Below, piece by piece: positions 48,775-58,787 of a stretch of DNA of 64,000 nt. The stretch covers positions 25,920-89,919 of the forward strand of contig JBHIAC010000002.1 in NCBI GenBank assembly GCA_046758365.1, read 5' to 3'. The position numbers and the translations under genes were made by a program. Each line of letters starts with the position of its first letter. Within the stretch, counting starts at the first letter, position 1. Origin of the DNA: a bacterium (lineage in GTDB: Bacteria; Zhuqueibacterota; Zhuqueibacteria; Oceanimicrobiales; Oceanimicrobiaceae). A model generated the notes under the pieces. It had not been told where the DNA came from and made no database searches. It saw only the letters and a list, made by a program, of their open reading frames with translations.

Positions 48775-49485
48775 TTATTTATCTATTCCCATCTTCTTTT
48801 TCATGGCTGCAAGAGAATCGGCTGTCTTGGCTGAGGAGGGGGCTTCCAGGGCTTTGTCGATTTCCTCGTCCACGCCTAAACTAACCTCTGATAATTCACC
48901 ATAGGCTTCAGCCAAAGATTCCTCTTCCATGACTTTATTCTTCATTTTTTCAAGCGTGGCTATAGTTCCGGACGAATCTACATTGGCCAGTTGCTGATTT
49001 ATTTTACGCATGGAAGCAGCGGTCCTCGCTCTTGCCCGTAACGTAATCAGCTCATTCTCGTACCGTGAGACGGTTTGTTTAAGCTTTTCAACTTTAGCTT
49101 GAAGCTGATCCGCCATCTGCTGCTGTTGTTTATGATCAGTCTGTAAGGTGGAAGCCCTGGTCATGGCCTCTTCTTTTTTATTTAACGCCTGTGTCGCTAA
49201 GCGGTCTGCCTCGGCTTGCTCAAGTTCACCATTTTGCAATTTCTGAAGTAGTAACATAGCCTTTCTTTCGTAGTCTTGGGCCAATTTCTTTTGGTCATCA
49301 GCATCCTTTTTTAACCGAATAGAGGCCGCTTTAACCTGCGCTAGGGAAGTCATAGAATTCTGCAAATCTTTCTTTAAATCACGAATTCCTTGTTCAGTCA
49401 TTTTAATGGGATCCTCAAGTTTATCCACAACTGAATGGGCCTGGGCTTGCCCAACTTTAAAAATTCTCTGAAACACACTCGCCAT
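48775..49485 (-). CDS. pspA: PspA/IM30 family protein (YjfJ-like paralogue, bacterial ESCRT-III)
   Basis: MASVFQRIF, KLEDPIKMTEQGIRDL, long coiled coil, LEKMKNKV..EESLAEAY, LAAMKKKMG. Confidence 0.93.
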   Translation of the reverse strand: MASVFQRIFKVGQAQAHSVVDKLEDPIKMTEQGIRDLKKDLQNSMTSLAQVKAASIRLKKDADDQKKLAQDYERKAMLLLQKLQNGELEQAEADRLATQALNKKEEAMTRASTLQTDHKQQQQMADQLQAKVEKLKQTVSRYENELITLRARARTAASMRKINQQLANVDSSGTIATLEKMKNKVMEEESLAEAYGELSEVSLGVDEEIDKALEAPSSAKTADSLAAMKKKMGIDK

Positions 49486-49516: not shown

Positions 49517-49912
49517 CTAATGTTTTGAATATTCTAATAATTCTCCGCCATACTCTGCCAATCCCAGAGAAAGCGCTCGAATGGAACCTTCTAACTCATT
49601 CCGATCAATATTTTCCAATTGTAGTGTATCCCGGAAGAAAACATATTTGCCTTCTTCGTCAAGCACAAAAGCACCGTGGACTAAAGAACGGTTCATCTGA
49701 AGTAGGCGTTTGAAAAAATCCCTTGGCTCTTTTGGAACCTTCATGATGAGTTGCTCAAGTACCACGATCGGAGGTTCACAATCAATTATAAGATTTCTGA
49801 TACCGCTATCCTCGTCCTCCACAATCACCAACTCCTCAGATTCGTCTTCGTCGACTACCTTTAAATCAAAATCAAGAAGGTAGTTTTTGATTAAATTTAG
49901 GTTTTCTGACAT
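49517..49912 (-). CDS. YbjN/CesT-like (type III secretion chaperone fold) protein
   Basis: FFKRLLQMNRSLVHGAFVLD, FRDTLQLENID; small and acidic; adjacent to pspA. Confidence 0.8.
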   Translation of the reverse strand: MSENLNLIKNYLLDFDLKVVDEDESEELVIVEDEDSGIRNLIIDCEPPIVVLEQLIMKVPKEPRDFFKRLLQMNRSLVHGAFVLDEEGKYVFFRDTLQLENIDRNELEGSIRALSLGLAEYGGELLEYSKH

Positions 49913-49993: not shown

Positions 49994-50365
49994 TCACTTT
50001 TTTAGCTGCTTTTCCAATTCTTCGTAGGCATGGTTTAGTCCTTGTGTTAACTCATTGGCAATTTGTCGCTTTTCTGCATCTTGGGAGTGGACATCTGGAT
50101 GATACTTCTTGACTAATTGCTTCCAAGCCTGCCGCACGGTCTTAAGGTCCGATCCGTAAGGTACTTCTAGATTTTCATAGTAGCCAGCAAGCACAGGATC
50201 GTCGTTGTGGCGATGATGCCGGGCCTGAGATTTACCAAATGTTTTATTTCCTTCAGTATATTTAAAATATTCATGATGGTCAGGATTAGCCCCAAAATTA
50301 TCATCATCATCAGAAAAAGAGAGATGAGCACGTAGAATATTGATCAGACGGGAAAATATACTCAT
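49994..50365 (-). CDS. J-domain (DnaJ-type) co-chaperone with N-terminal amphipathic helix
   Basis: YYENLEV...KKYHPD...LNHAYEEL at the C-terminus; N-terminus MSIFSRLINILRAHLS. Confidence 0.9.
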   Translation of the reverse strand: MSIFSRLINILRAHLSFSDDDDNFGANPDHHEYFKYTEGNKTFGKSQARHHRHNDDPVLAGYYENLEVPYGSDLKTVRQAWKQLVKKYHPDVHSQDAEKRQIANELTQGLNHAYEELEKQLKK

Positions 50366-50403: not shown

Positions 50404-51429
50404 TCATAAAAGAGATTGTGGTTTTCCTTCTGAGATAACAATTAAATAATCACCAGCCGCAACTTTGTAATCCACAGGCGGATTTGATATAACCTCGCCT
50501 TCATTTCCTTTTTGGACAGCTAAGATAATGCTTTGGTTTGACTGTTTCATTTCAGTAAAAATTTCAATAAAACTTTTTCCCTGCATGGACTGGGGTACTG
50601 GAATTTTAAACAGATCATTTCCAAAGCGAGAACTTAACAGTTCAGACAAAACTTTCGAAATACCGTGATCGAGCGTTGCTCTGGAAATCAGTTTGCTACT
50701 GAACTCGCTGCCCACGATAATTTCATCGGCGTTAGCGCGTTCGCAGTGTTGTACGTTGGTGCCGTCTACCAGTTCCACAATCGTGTAAACATTAGGATTC
50801 AAACTCTCGACCGTCAATGTGATCAGAACTGCCTTGGCATCCCGTGCGTTAGCCTCAAGTTGGTCATCGCCTAATATTACTACCGTTTTGGCTTTTTCAA
50901 GGTTTGCACGCTTCAGATTTTCCTCAGTAATGCTGCCCTGAATGAAGAATAGGTTTTTGTCGTCAACAGGTTTCACGTCAATTTCGGCAATCAAAATGAT
51001 AGGAGCTGTCTCAATTCTGTGATCCATTCGAAGTTCATGGAGAATTTCCCGCGCTCGATAATTCCATTCACAAAGAATGATATGGTTTTCAAAATCGTAG
51101 GAGCGCATACCCCGCTCTTCCTTCATTTTTTTTTCTACAAATATGCTGGCAATCGTTGCCGTAAACAACCCTAAAATGCCAATGCCAAAAAACATAATGA
51201 GTGCACCAATAATACGGCCACCTAAAGATTGTGGTGTAATGTCACCGTAACCAACCGTAGTAATAGTTACAACGCTCCACCATACAGCCTCGATTAAAGA
51301 TTTGCGTTCGAATAATGCAAGACCCAAAGTACTTAAAAAAATTAAAACCACCAGAATCAATAGTAATCGGTGCAAATTCTCCCGCTGTAAAAATAATAAA
51401 ATACGCTTAATTTTTGTTTTCATTCTCAT
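50404..51429 (-). CDS. Two-TM potassium channel with RCK (TrkA-N/C) domains
   Basis: TTVGYGD selectivity filter, NHIILC, RANLEKA, SNPP...GD. Confidence 0.95.
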   Translation of the reverse strand: MRMKTKIKRILLFLQRENLHRLLLILVVLIFLSTLGLALFERKSLIEAVWWSVVTITTVGYGDITPQSLGGRIIGALIMFFGIGILGLFTATIASIFVEKKMKEERGMRSYDFENHIILCEWNYRAREILHELRMDHRIETAPIILIAEIDVKPVDDKNLFFIQGSITEENLKRANLEKAKTVVILGDDQLEANARDAKAVLITLTVESLNPNVYTIVELVDGTNVQHCERANADEIIVGSEFSSKLISRATLDHGISKVLSELLSSRFGNDLFKIPVPQSMQGKSFIEIFTEMKQSNQSIILAVQKGNEGEVISNPPVDYKVAAGDYLIVISEGKPQSLL

Positions 51430-51453: not shown

Positions 51454-53061
51454 TTAGTAGAAGTCCCACGCACCGTTTCTATAATAATGGTACACAGCCA
51501 AATCCAGTTCATCGTTTACTGCAACTTCTTCGAGCCTTTCAACCATCCCTTTGCCAAAATTAAGCATGCTGATCATTGCTTCCTGATTCAAAAATTTAGT
51601 TTCAATATGTGAATAGTTTAATTCAGACAGACGAGCTTTTAATGAAGGGGGTTCAATACTCTTTGCATTGAAGCCTAAAACCCAACCCCATTCACCCAGC
51701 GTTGGAATGTGATTGTGGTAGGCAACAGCAGGTATTCCGGCAGCGCGCATGGTCTTTAAAATTGACAAAAAGGCGTTTTTTGAAAATAAAGGGCTGGTGG
51801 CTTGAGTGACGATCGTTCCACCCTTAGATAAATGGCGTAAAGCCAACTGGTAAAATTGTCGGGTATAGAGTCGGGCTAGCCCAACTGTTTTTGGGTCTGG
51901 AAGATCTATGATAATCACATCATACAGAGTGTCATCCTCCTTTAGATAAGCGAAAGCATCTCGGTTTACTACACGTACACATGGATTATTCAACGACCCA
52001 TCATTGAGCTGAAGAAAAATAGGATGCTTCTGACCAAGTTCCGTCATAGCGGGATCGATATCCACTAAAATCACACTCTTCACCTCGGGATATTTTAGGA
52101 CTTCCCGAGCCGCTAAACCATCGCCTCCTCCCAATATCAAAATACGTTCCCGCGATGCACTCAGATTCAAAGCAGGATGGACTAGAGGTTCATGGTATCT
52201 TTCTTCATCGTAGCTGCTAAACTGTTCGTTGCCGTTCAAGTAAAGCCAGTAATCATCTTTCCACTGGGTTATCACAATGCGTTGATATGGAGTTTGCTGC
52301 TGGTAAATAACCCGATCTTTATATTTTTTCTGCTCACCATATAGCACAATCGGCTCAGAAATAAAAACCAGTATGCTAAGAAAAATGGGTACGAGCAAAA
52401 ATCCAATGGTTAGAAGCTTCTGGTACTTTAGAAGACTCCGGTAACGTAAAAACAAGGCTGAAGCTACTAAAAAATTAATGGTGCCCAAAACGATTGGCGT
52501 GTAAGTTAAACCCAATCGGGGAAGTGCTACAAAAGCAAACAGCAGTCCGCCCAGAAGCGCACCGTAATAATCATTTTCCATGACAGAGCTGATGTTTACA
52601 CGGAGCTCCTCGAAAAAATCATTGAGACGCGTTGCCAGTGGAATTTCTAACCCAATTAAAATACCAATGGTAATAGAGGTAAAATAGATTATTGGAGCAA
52701 TATTTTGGATATAAGCCGAAAGAAAATATGTCAACGCAGCACTTATGGCACAAAGCACAGAAAGAACAAATTCAACCAGCACAAAGGTGTCAAGTAGCGG
52801 ACCCCGGAAATATTTGCTTAAGCGACTCCCAATCCCCATGGCAAAAAGCATCATAGAGACGGTGAGTGTCCATTGCAGTACGGCGTTTCCAAGCAGATAG
52901 CTGGCTAAAGTGGACAAAACGTACTCGGCAACAATTCCAGATAGACCCGTTGCGAAAATGCATGCTTTAAGCACAAAGCTACGATTAAATCGACGATTCT
53001 CACCTCGAGAATTTCCCCTGATCGGAGCTTCAGGTGTCTTTATGTCTAAGGATGCACGCAT
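51454..53061 (-). CDS. speE: Membrane-fused polyamine aminopropyltransferase (spermidine synthase-like)
   Basis: About 7 N-terminal TMs; TPYQRI, DEERYHEPLVHP, LGGGDG, VDID, DLPDP. Confidence 0.88.
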   Translation of the reverse strand: MRASLDIKTPEAPIRGNSRGENRRFNRSFVLKACIFATGLSGIVAEYVLSTLASYLLGNAVLQWTLTVSMMLFAMGIGSRLSKYFRGPLLDTFVLVEFVLSVLCAISAALTYFLSAYIQNIAPIIYFTSITIGILIGLEIPLATRLNDFFEELRVNISSVMENDYYGALLGGLLFAFVALPRLGLTYTPIVLGTINFLVASALFLRYRSLLKYQKLLTIGFLLVPIFLSILVFISEPIVLYGEQKKYKDRVIYQQQTPYQRIVITQWKDDYWLYLNGNEQFSSYDEERYHEPLVHPALNLSASRERILILGGGDGLAAREVLKYPEVKSVILVDIDPAMTELGQKHPIFLQLNDGSLNNPCVRVVNRDAFAYLKEDDTLYDVIIIDLPDPKTVGLARLYTRQFYQLALRHLSKGGTIVTQATSPLFSKNAFLSILKTMRAAGIPAVAYHNHIPTLGEWGWVLGFNAKSIEPPSLKARLSELNYSHIETKFLNQEAMISMLNFGKGMVERLEEVAVNDELDLAVYHYYRNGAWDFY

Positions 53062-53267: not shown

Positions 53268-54113
53268 CTATAAAACCCATCCAATCAGAAAAGAAGCCGC
53301 AATATACGAAAATGCCTCGATTGCACCAGCGCCCACATTTGGGACATCTTGCCCTACAAGCTCTTTGGTTAAGCGTTCCCCAGGAAGAAGTACTTTATCT
53401 GTAACCAGACGTATTACAGGAAGCATGATTAGACCAAAGGCAACGAAACCCACGAAATTCATCATGTTCACTTGCCAGGAGATAAAATCACCACCTACAC
53501 CTATGCGGATAACATTACCCAACGCAATAAGCATTCCAGCGAAAGCAACCCCAACTGCAACATTGTCTTTTTCAATTTCCTCGTGTACATCGAAAGGGGT
53601 GATAAAATTATATATTAGTCCAGCTCCTATTAATACGATTTGTCCTAGAATCCAAAATGCTGCGGCCGTAACCAAATCTCCTCCCTCACCTGAAATAGCG
53701 CCATAGATTATGAGACCAACTGCAATGTGGTTGGCAGCTTCGATTACTCCAGTGCCAACATTGCGATCTTGGATAATCTCCTTAACGTTGTCAAATTTAT
53801 ACATAATGATTTTGTCATTGATGAAGGAAGAAAGATTTAACAGTATAATCGAGATGGCACCGTAGATAAGAATATCAATCATGTCATCCACCCAGCCAGA
53901 GGAAGGACCTATGAGAATACCGCCAATGGCAAACACTAATCCAAGATAATATCCAATCACAGCCAAAGCAAGGGCAAAATTATCCTTTTGTAGTAGCTCT
54001 TCTCGCAAAACAAATTTCCGATTAACTTTGTCATAGACAAATTTTCCGACAAAAAAAATAAAAAATACAGCAATAAGATAAACTAATGCGGTTACCACTT
54101 CATCAATGGTCAT
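53268..54113 (-). CDS. Double DUF350 (YjfL-like) membrane protein
   Basis: Repeated units ELLQKDNFALA, EIIQDRNVGTG, EIEKDNVAVG, PNVGAG between TM pairs. Confidence 0.88.
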   Translation of the reverse strand: MTIDEVVTALVYLIAVFFIFFVGKFVYDKVNRKFVLREELLQKDNFALALAVIGYYLGLVFAIGGILIGPSSGWVDDMIDILIYGAISIILLNLSSFINDKIIMYKFDNVKEIIQDRNVGTGVIEAANHIAVGLIIYGAISGEGGDLVTAAAFWILGQIVLIGAGLIYNFITPFDVHEEIEKDNVAVGVAFAGMLIALGNVIRIGVGGDFISWQVNMMNFVGFVAFGLIMLPVIRLVTDKVLLPGERLTKELVGQDVPNVGAGAIEAFSYIAASFLIGWVL

Positions 54114-54177: not shown

Positions 54178-54897
54178 CTATTTACCAAATCCTCCGCTAC
54201 GTCTCCGAAGCCCACTCATTCTACTTCGGCGTGCTCTATTTTTAACCCTCTGGGAGAAGCGAGCTTTCTTGGCCAACTCCTTTTGTTTGCGTCGTTCAAA
54301 AAATGATTTGTTAGTATGCTTCGTATACGATCCATTTGTGCCATACTCACGATTAGGGCCGTAATAGGGTGTACCTCGGGAGCGGTAATCCCGATAAGTA
54401 TTCCAGTCAGAACGGTAAATGGGTCGGCCAAACATGCCGAACATATGACTAAAAAATGCATATTTACCATAAAATTCCCAAAACGAATTGCCACGTTCAT
54501 CACGCCGCCAGTTACCATATCTGGGATCCCCAACGTATTGATACCCGGGCGGATACTGTGCGTTAGTTACCTCACTATCACGCGATTTTGAAGCAAGTAC
54601 CATACCCAAATAGTTTCTGTACTTTTCATACTCTCGCTTATTCACCTTATCCCAATCGGAGATTTGACTTTGGTATATCAAGCTATCGGGATTTCCAATC
54701 TTCTCCGCATACACGATTTTGTAGCGATGAAAATAATCCTTGAAAAAATTACCCTCTTCTTTCATATCTTCCAAAATGATTGAATACTCAGGGTACTTAT
54801 CCAATTGCCGTCTAAGGCGTTCAATAGGGGTAGATGAAGCACAGGATATGGTCAATAAGGCTAAGAGCAACCATAAAATATTAGATTTTTTTTTCAC
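54178..54897 (-). CDS. Lipoprotein with Arg/Gly-rich C-terminal tail ending SGGFGK
   Basis: Lipobox TISC; PPGYQYVGDPRYGNW, SFWEFYGKYAF; basic tail. Confidence 0.85.
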   Translation of the reverse strand: MKKKSNILWLLLALLTISCASSTPIERLRRQLDKYPEYSIILEDMKEEGNFFKDYFHRYKIVYAEKIGNPDSLIYQSQISDWDKVNKREYEKYRNYLGMVLASKSRDSEVTNAQYPPGYQYVGDPRYGNWRRDERGNSFWEFYGKYAFFSHMFGMFGRPIYRSDWNTYRDYRSRGTPYYGPNREYGTNGSYTKHTNKSFFERRKQKELAKKARFSQRVKNRARRSRMSGLRRRSGGFGK

Positions 54898-54970: not shown

Positions 54971-55516
54971 TCATACAATTTCCCCCGGCAAAATATTTGA
55001 AAACTGATACTCTTCAACATAATAGCCTTCTGCGGCCTCAAAATCGGTTTCACCCCATTGTTCGATGGTCAGAAAATGCTCGTCCTCCTCATCAATAAAG
55101 TCCCAATAAACAAACTCCTTCGCTGCCCCTTGACCCCCTTCATACAAATAACCCGTCCCTGATTCATCCAGATAATATTTCTTTCCTTTGCAAACCACCT
55201 GTGAGGGCGGGTCGTCGTGTTCTATAATATATTTACGAATATCCCCTTCAATTGCTCCAATGGGAATCTTTTTAGCTAAATTCCATTCAACTTCGTCGTC
55301 TTCGGAACGCTCTAAATACCATTTTTCTCGACCAGTTGTGAGTTCCCACTCGTCAGTAATATAACCTTCCCCATAGTCGTACTTATTGTAGTCTGTCACT
55401 TCCCAAGTTGTCATATCGTAATCGACAAAAAACCCAACGCGGAGCTTGGAGAGCTCAAGATCTTTGAGAGGATCAAATTCATCTTCCTTTTTCTTAAATA
55501 AATCTTTTAATCCCAT
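54971..55516 (-). CDS. DUF4178-domain protein
   Basis: MGLKDLFKK, LRVG, EWEL, WYLE, YYLDESG, YWDF, LTIEQW; highly acidic. Confidence 0.85.
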   Translation of the reverse strand: MGLKDLFKKKEDEFDPLKDLELSKLRVGFFVDYDMTTWEVTDYNKYDYGEGYITDEWELTTGREKWYLERSEDDEVEWNLAKKIPIGAIEGDIRKYIIEHDDPPSQVVCKGKKYYLDESGTGYLYEGGQGAAKEFVYWDFIDEEDEHFLTIEQWGETDFEAAEGYYVEEYQFSNILPGEIV

Positions 55517-55844: not shown

Positions 55845-56522
55845 TTAACACGATGATGATGAGGAAGATGCCACAACTGTTGCTGCAATTGCTGCGCTAA
55901 TGGCAACTTGAATTCCTGCAACTGTATCAGAGACCGCCATACCAATAAGATTACTTTTTGCAATTTCTTTTACTCGTTTTCGAGCAACCTTGCGTTCTTC
56001 CCGCGAAAAGATCTCACCAACAAGATTGCATGCGTTAACTAAGCTAATCAGCACTGCCATCCTAGGTTCGGGAGTTTTTCCATCAAGAATTATGGCACGG
56101 ATACCATCTCTCACCTCCTGCTCCACTTTAGCATCCTCAGTCGGGTAGCGTTGGGATGGGAAAACCCACAAAATGCGATGTTCTTCTTTTTTCAGAATGC
56201 CTTTATGAATAAGTCGGTTTAACAAGCGTTCCTTGAGATTCTTGATTTCTCTACTTAGTTTACTAACCCAATATTGGGCATTCCTCTTTCGTTTGGAGTG
56301 CTTTATTATGGTTAATGCTTCGTCAAGAATATCATCACCTGTTGGTGTCGCATCAACTACCACTAGATTCTTCTTATCAATGTGAAGCCTACCCATGAGC
56401 GAGAGTTCCATGAGGACTGCACCAGACAGCCCATACTGTAATGACATAGAAGCGGATGAAAGGACTGTGCCTTTTTCGTCATGCCATGATAGTAGTAATA
56501 ATTCTTCTGCTAAGCTAATCAT
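55845..56522 (-). CDS. GPP34 (GOLPH3/Vps74-like) family protein
   Basis: SLAEELLLL, LSGAVLMELSLMGR, PTGDDILDEAL, RLIHKGIL, RILWVFPSQRYP hairpin. Confidence 0.9.
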   Translation of the reverse strand: MISLAEELLLLSWHDEKGTVLSSASMSLQYGLSGAVLMELSLMGRLHIDKKNLVVVDATPTGDDILDEALTIIKHSKRKRNAQYWVSKLSREIKNLKERLLNRLIHKGILKKEEHRILWVFPSQRYPTEDAKVEQEVRDGIRAIILDGKTPEPRMAVLISLVNACNLVGEIFSREERKVARKRVKEIAKSNLIGMAVSDTVAGIQVAISAAIAATVVASSSSSSC

Positions 56523-56649: not shown

Positions 56650-57354
56650 TTATGGTTTCTTTTGTGCTTTTTTTAACCTTTCAAGTTCTTTTTCAACGGT
56701 CTTAGCTTTTTCATGTTTCTCAAGTTCACGCTCATTTTGTAAATCCATGTTGAGTAACTCATTTGCTGCTTCAGCTTCTGATTCCAATTTTAAGATGGCT
56801 TCTTCATAGGATTCAAGATTTTTTTGGGATTCATTAAAGTTTAATATTGATTTAGCCGTTGTGCCTAAAGCTTCGGTAGCAATACTTATCGATTTTTGAG
56901 TGCTTAATTTTGCTTTAGCCGCTCGTTTTCGACGAATCAATTCTTCTTTCTTACGTCGGGCTTCTTGCACTTGGTCTTCTAATTTCGCCAAATCAGATTT
57001 TAGTTGTTCAACTGTTTCAGCAGCGCTTTGCAATTCTGGTTTTAGATTTACTCGCCTTTCTTCATTATCAAGTTTTTTGGTAATAATTTTTCTGGCCAAT
57101 TCTTCTTCATTTTTATTTAATGCAAGTTTCGCTTTCTCTTCCAAATCTTTCGCCAGGTCTGTTGCCGCCTGAATTTGCTTCTCAACTTGTTTTTGGTGAG
57201 CTAAAGCCCGAACCGTTTCCTTACGTAGTTCAATGATGCTTTCTTCCATGTCACGAATAATTTGTTTAACCATCACTTCAGGCTCTTCAGCCTGATCTAG
57301 TAGGTGATTTATATTAGCTGTGATAAGTTCAGAGATTCGTTTTAGTAAATTCAT
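56650..57354 (-). CDS. pspA: Phage shock protein A (PspA/IM30, canonical type)
   Basis: MNLLKRISELITANINHLLDQAEEPEVMVKQIIRDME, KAKLALNKNEEELAR; GAGGTG SD. Confidence 0.95.
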   Translation of the reverse strand: MNLLKRISELITANINHLLDQAEEPEVMVKQIIRDMEESIIELRKETVRALAHQKQVEKQIQAATDLAKDLEEKAKLALNKNEEELARKIITKKLDNEERRVNLKPELQSAAETVEQLKSDLAKLEDQVQEARRKKEELIRRKRAAKAKLSTQKSISIATEALGTTAKSILNFNESQKNLESYEEAILKLESEAEAANELLNMDLQNERELEKHEKAKTVEKELERLKKAQKKP

Positions 57355-57600: not shown

Positions 57601-57616
57601 TGCAAGAGATGTGCCA
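57601..57616 (-). promoter_or_regulatory. Sigma-54 (-24/-12) promoter for pspA
   Basis: TGGCAC-ATCTC-TTGCA, exact match to the TGGCAC-N5-TTGCW consensus. Confidence 0.9.
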
Positions 57617-57654: not shown

Positions 57655-57694
57655 GGAATGGTGAAATACGCCAAGGAATGGTGATTTACGCCAA
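57655..57694. promoter_or_regulatory. Tandem enhancer-binding-protein sites (PspF UAS-like)
   Basis: Two 20 bp direct repeats GGAATGGTGAAATACGCCAA / GGAATGGTGATTTACGCCAA, each an imperfect TGG...CCA palindrome, upstream of the sigma-54 promoter. Confidence 0.8.
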
Positions 57695-58651
57695 AAGATC
57701 TCCCAAATCATATTTTTTATAATAATGACGAAATTGATCATACGTCATTCCAAGACTTTTTGCAGCCTCACGTTGGTTACCGGAAGCATCTTTAAGCGCG
57801 TTGAGCAATAAGGTTTTCTCATAAGCCATAATTTTCTCATAAAACGTGCCTCCTAAAGGTTCAAGCGAGGTAATTTCTAAAGGAAGTTCGGACGCTTGGA
57901 TAATCCCATCTTCGTCTGAAATATAAAGCCGTTCAACAATGTTTTTGAGCTCGCGAATATTGCCAGGCCAATGGTAGGCTTGAAGATCTTTAATGGCAGC
58001 CAGCGTGAAAGTTTTCTCCTCAAGATTGGGTATTTCTTGGTGCAATTGAGCTACAATATAATCAATTAAAACCGGGATATCCTCTCTTCTTTTTCTGAGT
58101 GGAGGCAAAATCAGTTCAGCAAAACTTAAGCGGTCATAGAGATCACGTAGGAATTCCCCACTTTCCATCATCTCTTCCAAAAGGGCATTGGAGGCGGCGA
58201 TAATGCGTACATCCACTTCAATAGATTTGTTTCCACCAACCCTTTCGAATTTTTGATATTCGAGCACCCGCAGGAGTCTTTCCTGTGCTGTCCGGCTCAT
58301 ATTTGCAACTTCGTCCAGAAAGAGTGTTCCAAGGTTCGCAACTTCTAATTTTCCTGGTTTAGCTTCCATGGCGCCTGTGAAGGCACCTTTCTCGTGACCA
58401 AACATTTCAGAAACAAATAATTCTTCCTGAAAAGCAGCACAGTTCACCACAATGTATGGTTTGTCAGCTCGACCACTTTCCTTATGAATGAAACGAGCCA
58501 GTAACTCCTTTCCAGTACCACGCTCACCGCGAACTAAGATAGGTCGAGGTATCTTGGCCAATTTTCTGGCCTCTTGAACTACTGCGGTGAATAGGGCGCT
58601 TTTTCCGACGCCTGCATAAACAGGTTCATAAAAATTTGTTATTTGACCCAT
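57686..58651 (-). CDS. pspF: PspF-like sigma-54 enhancer-binding protein (AAA+ and HTH, no N-terminal sensor)
   Basis: GERGTGKE, GAFTGA, TLFLDE, WPGNIRELKN, LGMTYDQFRHY. Start ATG 58651 or TTG 58660. Confidence 0.9.
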   Translation of the reverse strand: MGQITNFYEPVYAGVGKSALFTAVVQEARKLAKIPRPILVRGERGTGKELLARFIHKESGRADKPYIVVNCAAFQEELFVSEMFGHEKGAFTGAMEAKPGKLEVANLGTLFLDEVANMSRTAQERLLRVLEYQKFERVGGNKSIEVDVRIIAASNALLEEMMESGEFLRDLYDRLSFAELILPPLRKRREDIPVLIDYIVAQLHQEIPNLEEKTFTLAAIKDLQAYHWPGNIRELKNIVERLYISDEDGIIQASELPLEITSLEPLGGTFYEKIMAYEKTLLLNALKDASGNQREAAKSLGMTYDQFRHYYKKYDLGDLLA

Positions 58652-58787
58652 AGAATTCAATAATTTTAAAAAGTTACATAATTCTCTTTATTAAGTCAAG
58701 TTTGTGTTGAAACTCAATGCATTAATGAATTAATGTTGTATCAGGTTATATGAATAGTGGTTAATAGCTAATAAATTTAACTCGATA

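Follow-up and report, generated by a model that had tools for sequence, protein, structure and literature searches.

The bacterial ESCRT-III protein PspA is anchored to the membrane by its N-terminal helix alpha0, which is described as unfolded off the membrane (PMC12358876), and an N-terminal lipid-binding helix, H0, is ascribed to most ESCRT-III proteins (PMC7619361). According to a 2025 review, a Vps4-like ATPase is apparently absent from bacteria, which suggests some other control of PspA polymerization (PMC7619361). Vipp1 is reported to interact with Hsp70/DnaK and the J-protein CDJ2, which apparently play a part in the polymer's homeostasis and its disassembly (PMC13051332); in Synechocystis it is bound by DnaK2 (PMC4297356), and in plants Hsp70 is reported to work via the C-terminal tail of VIPP1 (PMC12798727). 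On the genomic side, a phage shock protein (PSP) operon combining CesT/Tir, PspA, and spermine synthase genes was described by Ravi et al. 2024 (PMC11237479, the second group there). Here we analyze a stretch of 64,000 nucleotides (nt) from a bacterium of the Oceanimicrobiaceae, phylum Zhuqueibacterota (assembly GCA_046758365.1, contig JBHIAC010000002.1, positions 25,920 to 89,919 of the forward strand), called the window below. It contains an operon of this type with one additional gene, which encodes a small J-domain protein with an alpha0-like N-terminus, called the J protein.

The operon of the window agrees with the described one in having, on one strand, a CesT/Tir-like gene next to pspA and genes for a membrane-anchored spermine synthase, a DUF350 protein, a predicted lipoprotein (the putative counterpart of the Ctha_1186 domain of that paper), and a DUF4178 protein. 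Five of these six parts have Pfam matches, and the lipoprotein is recognized only by its N-terminal signal and its conserved position. The K+ channel gene of the window is listed in the same paper for a related operon type (PMC11237479). Unlike the described operon, the window has a J-domain gene between the channel gene and the CesT gene. The terms DnaJ, J domain, Hsp70, and DnaK are absent from the main text of PMC11237479, and the first three also from one of its supplementary files; J-domain, Hsp70, DnaK, and PF00226 are absent from the Psp survey of Popp et al. 2022 (PMC9239133). No description of a PspA-linked bacterial J-protein was found in literature titles and abstracts, among which subscription journals are largely missing. 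The J protein is a new architectural variant among J-domain co-chaperones and apparently a part, not described before, of a known PSP operon type.

The HSP70B-CDJ2-CGE1/VIPP1 system of Chlamydomonas and the DnaK2-Vipp1 pair of Synechocystis likewise tie a J-protein or Hsp70 to a polymer of the PspA family, and are implicated in its assembly and disassembly. In contrast to the CDJ2 system, the tie here is genomic (an operon), the protein is tiny, and the targeting element would be a copy of the alpha0 of PspA itself. We propose, with about even confidence, that the J protein serves a PspA system as a dedicated Hsp70 co-chaperone of the J-domain-only kind (class III type). In one clade, its gene is the first of a conserved J/CesT_Tir_1/PspA module within the polyamine-linked PSP operon.

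Architecture and conservation of the J protein

The start of the J gene is unambiguous, since the open frame has just 124 codons; the N-terminal sequence of the product is MSIFSRLINILRAHLS, and the coordinates of all parts are given in Table 1. In an AlphaFold2 (AF2) model built with 53 homologs, a helix at residues 3-18 is followed by J-domain helices at 57-65, 74-87, and 97-122, the last two flanking the HPD tripeptide, which lies in the loop between J-domain helices II and III. The mean predicted local distance difference test score (pLDDT) of the model is 64.7, with values below 50 over residues 16-53 and block means of 75-84 from residue 61 onwards. Pfam finds a single domain, DnaJ (PF00226), at residues 62-122 with 38.5 bits against a cut-off of 27.8. 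The domain resembles solved J-domains, for instance those of DNAJA3 (8.1e-7) and of E. coli DnaJ (chain 5nro_B of the DnaK-DnaJ entry 5nro, 7.4e-4).

The protein terminates at its J-domain, with no G/F region, zinc-finger, or C-terminal client-binding domains after it, and it failed the test for class I/II DnaJ (TIGR02349, 34.1 bits against a cut-off of 377.2), where the J-domain alone was matched. The PspA/IM30 family PF04012 gave no match on the whole protein at E <= 0.01, and the ESCRT-III core is not there. NCBIfam has no model for the J family, and the corresponding ESM Atlas clusters are named just "DnaJ domain-containing protein". The best non-DnaJ match in NCBIfam is DjlA (NF006948, E 1.2e-7, residues 30-120 on positions 168-263 of 267), the membrane-anchored class III J-protein of Proteobacteria, which likewise combines a membrane element at the N-terminus with a linker and a J-domain at the C-terminus. 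However, DjlA has a transmembrane segment, whereas the J protein has an amphipathic surface helix with a charge of +2 and no hydrophobic span. The identity of the J protein with DjlA was ruled out, since its score of 31.7 bits is below the cut-off, which is 162. Three J-domain genes are present in the genome, two of which are DnaJ-sized, along with a single full-length DnaK gene and two PspA genes, PspA1 and PspA2, both inside the window.

A word-indexed search yielded 53 full-length homologs of 98-162 amino acids (aa; E <= 1.1e-12). Among 1.84 billion cluster representatives, a profile search found 86 clusters at E <= 1e-30; at E <= 1e-10 there are 989, a figure that certainly takes in other J-domain proteins. 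In the alignment of the 53 sequences, the invariant columns are D56, A60, Y63, L66, E67, G71, H89, and D91, and both P90 and R6 are at least 90% conserved. The linker has no conserved columns and varies in length across the family. All eight invariant columns lie at residues 56-91. Conservation in the family is thus highest in the HPD motif and the core of the J-domain, which argues for the J-domain being the functional end. The 13 longest representatives read, with 168-297 aa, also consist of the helix, a charged linker of much greater length, and the J-domain, and they lack a PspA core. Among 110 candidates, none proved to be a fused or longer form at E <= 0.001, but this is weak evidence.

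Of 197 family members, 182 have the N-terminal helix as judged by a model of 19 N-terminal positions, and several of the 15 missed members are truncated or start elsewhere. Among the 138 unique N-termini of the family, position 6 is arginine in 134 and lysine in only 4, and position 13 is alanine or serine in 124. Positions 3, 4, 7, 8, 10, 11, and 15 are hydrophobic, and positions 9 and 12 are mostly basic. The mean hydrophobic moment of the J helix (0.51) and its mean charge (+2.2) are near those of PspA2-type alpha0 (0.54 and +2.0, respectively), the N-termini of the genome having 0.24 and +0.9.

Similarity of the N-terminal helix to PspA alpha0

The 138 family N-termini (positions 2-19, offsets 0-3) served to build a matrix, by which the N-termini of the genome's 3,396 open reading frames (ORFs) with 90 aa or more were ranked; this null set consists of first-ATG starts from one genome. 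The J protein is the first with 28.7 bits, PspA2 the second with 15.8, and PspA1 the third with 15.1, followed by the next ORF at 11.6. When the same matrix is applied to all 990,661 ORF positions, the two PspA N-termini come 4th and 6th. A second, independent matrix draws on 14 family members that belong to other phyla, Myxococcota for the most part, and none of which adjoins pspA. Among the same 3,396 N-termini, it places PspA2 first (17.1 bits) and the J protein of the window second (13.4 bits), the next ORF having 5.6. The match of PspA2 to this matrix runs on through LLDxA at positions 17-24 (9.9 bits, with the 99th percentile of the null at 2.8). The reciprocal test with a narrow PspA2 matrix is weak, the J protein being 4th of 3,396 at just 4.3 bits and PspA1 7th.

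A profile-profile alignment (hhalign) of the J family with 32 PspAs gave a sole match, J residues 1-26 on PspA 1-27, with a probability of 78.8% and E 1.6e-5. Positions common to both consensus lines are M1, F/L4, R6, I/L7, K/R9, A13, N14, and N16, and the Myxococcota forms of the J protein also have the following LLDxA in common with PspA. Thus the J helix resembles the alpha0 of PspA/IM30/Vipp1 (H0 of ESCRT-III) in its place at the very N-terminus, its register, consensus positions, moment, and charge; unlike in PspA/IM30, it is followed by a linker and a J-domain and not by an ESCRT-III hairpin core. Because of the rank tests and the in-register match, we consider the J helix, at the level of sequence, a conserved PspA-alpha0-like element whose likeness is beyond chance. 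Either common descent or convergence may underlie this likeness; the extension into LLDxA in the Myxococcota forms tips the balance slightly towards an origin at the 5' end of a pspA gene. Comparison of the J helix with the PspA1 alpha0 in 36 cognate pairs was given up as a covariation analysis, since the PspA1 alpha0 is nearly invariant and at least four pairs (L015-L017 and L106) are out of register.

The initial annotation of this gene had described an N-terminus closely mirroring PspA helix 0, followed by a linker and an intact HPD J-domain, and it had asked for a profile-profile comparison. The resemblance is confirmed by the rankings, the independent matrix, and the hhalign match; the local PspA N-termini quoted for it (MASVFQRIF and MNLLKRISELITANI) are correct. 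The helix turned out to be conserved in the homologs, the linker (residues 19-55) is disordered, and the intactness of the J-domain agrees with the PF00226 score over its cut-off, the invariant H89 and D91, and the solved J-domains matched.

Two further observations concern alpha0-like segments elsewhere. In the CesT_Tir_1 protein of the window (49517-49912, minus strand), the J-helix matrix gives 13.6 bits to approximately residues 64-82 (RDFFKRLLQMNRSLVHGAF), which puts them 13th of 990,661 positions; a conserved chaperone helix may score so by coincidence, or the score may hint that such helices pack together. Outside the window, contigs C35 (plus strand, from 12625) and C42 (plus strand, from 12120) contain two paralogous ORFs of 212 aa with an alpha0-like segment at residue 26 (AISLERLWTLSRAS.NTRK), which score 16.5-16.7 bits, above the PspAs in the all-position scan.

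Linkage of the J gene to CesT-PspA

Synteny was counted with phmmer, using the proteins of the window as queries, so that a very divergent PspA or CesT could escape. From the species-representative set, the best 80 loci were taken, 39 of them with a helix of at least 12 bits. A pspA gene lies within 2.5 kb downstream on the same strand in 16 of these 39, with CesT between the two genes in 14 cases and directly next to the J gene in two (L030 and L053); one more locus, L003, is truncated by the end of its contig. Taxon labels of the linked loci are Calditrichota, Bacteroidota, Latescibacterota, Nitrospinota, Bdellovibrionales, and Gastranaerophilales. The same linkage occurs at the Acidobacteriota locus L010, which stands outside the 16 since its helix scores only 7.4 bits. 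In L002, L005, and L009, the J-CesT-PspA triad occurs with no K+ channel, synthase, or DUF350 gene within 10 kb.

In the phylum of the window, 167 genomes were covered. CesT_Tir_1 is over its cut-off in 19 of them, the J family (E <= 1e-12) is found in 20, and PspA is over its cut-off in 25. All 19 CesT genomes have a J gene; the single genome with a J gene only is 83% complete, and 288 nt separate the gene from the end of a contig. In 18 of 19 loci, the J gene is found directly upstream of CesT_Tir_1-PspA; at the 19th, a contig ends 94 nt from the start of CesT, and the J gene is at the edge of a different contig. What lies upstream of J is variable: a K+ channel gene in 10 loci, spermine synthase in five, and neither in three. 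As kin are not independent, the counts in this phylum describe the pattern and are no test of it. The closest named relatives of the window proteins come from Calditrichia/Calditrichota genomes.

Among 301 genomes of Acidobacteriota, there are nine strong CesT_Tir_1-PspA loci, three of them with a J gene. In Gammaproteobacteria, CesT_Tir_1 is over its cut-off in none of 400 scored genomes, and the class thus gave no comparison set. Finally, all five Myxococcota genomes checked among those with unlinked J genes have PspA, and four have an adjoining CesT-PspA pair elsewhere.

Several loci have unusual arrangements. In L019 (Myxococcota), where the J gene is otherwise unlinked and pspA is absent, a DUF4178 gene lies about 0.8 kb away on the other strand, and a weak spermine-synthase-like match occurs within 4 kb, also on the other strand (coordinates L019:10994-11437 and L019:14023-17448, both minus). 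On the Acidobacteriota chromosome of L010/L120, a second, truncated J-like ORF and a CesT-like fragment (L120:1899-3312) lie between the intact J gene and CesT-PspA and look like remnants of a tandem duplication. In family f7 of the window's phylum, PspA is present in five of 19 genomes, and two loci (L115 and L116) have PspA, a weak CesT-like match below the cut-off, and a K+ channel, with no J gene.

Gene neighborhood in the window

The J gene is the sixth in a run of eight genes on the minus strand with gaps of 24-206 nt, in the order DUF4178, lipoprotein, DUF350, spermine-synthase-like, K+ channel, J, CesT_Tir_1, and PspA1 (Table 1). The predicted lipoprotein belongs to no Pfam or NCBIfam family, and it is kept beside DUF4178/DUF350 in L001, L003, L004, L006, L008, L012, and L015. 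The PspF-like activator encoded near PspA2 has no N-terminal receiver domain. The window scan for the sigma-54 promoter consensus gave no credible site upstream of the run with the J gene, the only perfect site serving PspA2. With this perfect site between the PspF-like activator and PspA2, the window has, next to the polyamine-linked operon of PspA1, a classical PspF/PspA unit.

Between PspA2 and the DUF4178 operon lies a gene for a GPP34/GOLPH3-family protein (55845-56522, minus strand; Pfam 4.6e-62) with a Ser-rich C-terminal tail ending in Cys. It is not a conserved part of the module, as no GPP34 match occurs in any of 80 related loci.

Table 1. Coordinates of the J gene, its parts, and the other features of the window
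Feature	Position	Strand	Basis
J-domain protein with PspA-alpha0-like N-terminus, whole gene, 123 aa	49994..50365	-	ORF list; stop codon 49994-49996
Residues 1-18, PspA alpha0-type amphipathic helix (MSIFSRLINILRAHLSFS)	50312..50365	-	AF2 helix at 3-18
Residues 19-55, disordered acidic/His-rich linker	50201..50311	-	pLDDT <50 over residues 16-53
Residues 56-123, J-domain	49997..50200	-	Pfam PF00226, 38.5 bits
HPD tripeptide, H89 P90 D91	50093..50101	-	read off sequence
DUF4178 protein, first of the same-strand run	54971..55516	-	Pfam PF13785, 4.9e-25
Predicted lipoprotein	54178..54897	-	N-terminus MKKKSNILWLLLALLTISC read as signal peptide and lipobox cysteine; conserved position
DUF350 (YjfL-type) membrane protein, two repeats	53268..54113	-	Pfam PF03994, 1.7e-52, two stretches
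Membrane-anchored spermine/spermidine synthase-like protein	51454..53061	-	Pfam PF01564, 5.3e-38, residues 286-467
K+ channel with RCK/TrkA-N domain, 38 nt upstream of the J gene	50404..51429	-	Pfam Ion_trans_2, Slo-like_RCK, TrkA_N
CesT_Tir_1/YbjN-like chaperone, 81 nt downstream of the J gene	49517..49912	-	PF22550, 1.3e-50; PF10722, 4.9e-7
PspA1, divergent PspA/IM30, last gene of the cluster	48775..49485	-	PF04012, 1.4e-41; TIGR02977, 49.8 bits against cut-off 242.95
PspA2, canonical-type PspA, separate unit	56650..57354	-	PF04012; TIGR02977, 119.7 bits
PspF-like sigma-54 activator	57686..58660	-	TIGR02974, 3.1e-99, below its cut-off
Sigma-54 promoter consensus TGGCACATCTCTTGCA, upstream of PspA2	57601..57616	-	sole match with 0 mismatches among 36 in the window

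Proposed role of the J protein

Our best reading, which may well be right and as readily may not, is that the J protein recruits Hsp70 specifically to PspA. The alpha0-like helix would take it to the places where the alpha0 of PspA goes. These may be the surface of the anionic or stressed inner membrane, where alpha0 goes by default, the layer of alpha0 helices in PspA assemblies, or an alpha0-binding partner common to both proteins, such as the CesT/Tir-like chaperone bridging J and PspA1; this chaperone is an equally plausible binding partner for the J helix. There the J-domain would trigger ATP hydrolysis by the single DnaK of the cell, and DnaK would clamp onto PspA1 as its client and remodel the polymer, either in disassembly and recycling or in controlled assembly. 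The J protein would then be functionally akin to CDJ2-HSP70B acting on VIPP1 and to auxilin-Hsc70 acting on clathrin. In the latter system, a lattice-targeted J-protein recruits Hsp70 to take the clathrin membrane coat apart; the analogy is mechanistic only, as auxilin is a eukaryotic protein with no relation to the J protein beyond the J-domain. To name disassembly as the outcome, in preference to assembly or quality control, is a guess drawn from CDJ2 and auxilin.

A number of observations weigh against this proposal. The likeness of the helix is short, 16-24 residues, and goes undetected in standard hidden Markov model (HMM) searches. In a Pfam hmmscan of 30 N-terminal 40-mers at E <= 10, a test made weak either way by the HMMER filters, PspA_IM30 appears for only one (L060, E 0.21, residues 1-23 on profile positions 1-23). 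A local HMM of PspA2-type alpha0 (19 or 25 positions) run against the six-frame genome finds only PspA2 itself; it missed even PspA1, so that the model is too narrow. The corresponding HMM of the J helix finds only the J protein (E 2.7e-5). Further, the J helix is not a close copy of the PspA1 alpha0, the second half being of the RANLN type in J and of the GQAEAHS type in PspA1. On the genomic side, 22 of the 39 helix-bearing loci are unlinked to pspA and have unrelated genes as neighbors; Pfam searches of 70 neighbor ORFs of 17 loci (15 unlinked ones, L011, and L030) revealed no recurring partner, PspA occurring only at L030 and DUF4178 at L019. PspA is present with no J gene in five genomes of one family of the window's phylum, and the J gene is lacking at six of the nine Acidobacteriota CesT_Tir_1-PspA loci. 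Thus the J protein is dispensable for PspA as such.

The main rival explanation, unlikely in our estimate though with some weight, is a general membrane-tethered J-protein analogous to DjlA. Here the helix would park the J-domain on the inner membrane for general membrane or membrane-proximal clients of DnaK, for instance the K+ channel, the seven-transmembrane synthase, and the DUF350 protein of the operon. The likeness to alpha0 would be a shared solution to membrane binding, and the linkage to pspA would reflect co-expression under envelope stress. The parallel architecture and the DjlA match, which is below its cut-off, fit this explanation, as do a DjlA_TM-containing cluster among the structural neighbors in the ESM Atlas, the relatives unlinked to pspA, and the membrane protein usually encoded upstream of J. 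However, the constant neighbor is CesT-PspA and not the membrane proteins, the triad standing alone in three loci, and the same membrane proteins accompany CesT-PspA at the six Acidobacteriota loci that lack J. Moreover, the helix has specific PspA positions, with LLDxA added in Myxococcota, beyond generic amphipathicity, and the near-constancy of arginine over lysine at position 6 points the same way. A chaperone-bridged adaptor, which we regard as quite improbable, would use the helix mainly as a handle for a dimeric CesT/Tir-like chaperone that holds both PspA1 (via its alpha0) and the J protein, thereby bringing DnaK to chaperone-bound PspA1. It agrees with the place of CesT_Tir_1 between J and pspA in 14 of the 16 linked loci and in all 18 evaluable loci of the phylum, with the perfect co-occurrence of the two genes in the 167 genomes save for one contig-end case, and with the CesT-PspA pairs of Myxococcota with unlinked J genes. 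It also agrees with the binding of N-terminal client segments by type III secretion chaperones of the CesT/Tir fold. The direct J-PspA neighbors in L030 and L053, which do without CesT, and the majority of Acidobacteriota CesT-PspA loci, which manage without J, speak against it.

Two other explanations have far less weight. The helix could be a decoy or regulator that tunes PspA assembly by competing with the alpha0 of PspA for a partner or for sites on the membrane, with the J-domain secondary or idle. Its register with alpha0 and the position of the gene in the same run as PspA1 would suit such a role, which is nevertheless very unlikely given that the HPD motif and the J-domain core are what the family conserves most. 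That an N-terminus which is short, basic, and amphipathic resembles alpha0 by chance and has no functional link to PspA is already disfavored and hardly probable at all. The shortness of the match, the solitary PspA_IM30 hit, and a few unrelated segments that score as high as the PspAs in the all-position scan (ranks 2, 3, and 5) are what one would cite for it, but both PspAs are in the top three of 3,396 N-termini, the result is repeated with the independent matrix, the hhalign match is in register, and the synteny is conserved across phyla.

Returning to the dedicated recruiter, the idea was first put forward in the initial annotation, which cited the remodelling of VIPP1 by HSP70B with CDJ2. 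This precedent is real (PMC13051332). The expected co-occurrence with pspA was borne out as a tight CesT-PspA linkage in several phyla, including 18 of 19 loci in that of the window; this linkage does not extend to 22 of the 39 helix-bearing relatives. That annotation had overlooked both these unlinked relatives, about half of those found, and the CesT/Tir-like gene between J and pspA, and its interpretation as a whole is partly supported. A broader version of the idea is possible but doubtful: in several phyla, Hsp70 with a dedicated J-protein might be the missing energy-consuming remodeller of the PspA (bacterial ESCRT-III) clade, doing the job of Vps4 in archaea and eukaryotes, with a helix taken from the 5' end of pspA and a client found via its own anchor and possibly handed over by the CesT/Tir-like chaperone.

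Significance

The J gene adds a component to the polyamine-linked PSP operon, one that would combine a PspA-type anchor with an Hsp70 switch and that is genetically locked to a PspA gene across phyla. It would also show that alpha0 is able to serve as a portable targeting module. The J protein, the CesT-like protein, PspA1, and DnaK/GrpE form an easily purified set for probing Hsp70-driven turnover of PspA polymers in bacteria. The link between Hsp70 and the PspA family has so far come mainly from chloroplast and cyanobacterial Vipp1; a J protein with a PspA-type helix, encoded beside a PspA gene, suggests that some bacteria may use Hsp70 to remodel their ESCRT-III-like membrane-repair polymers.

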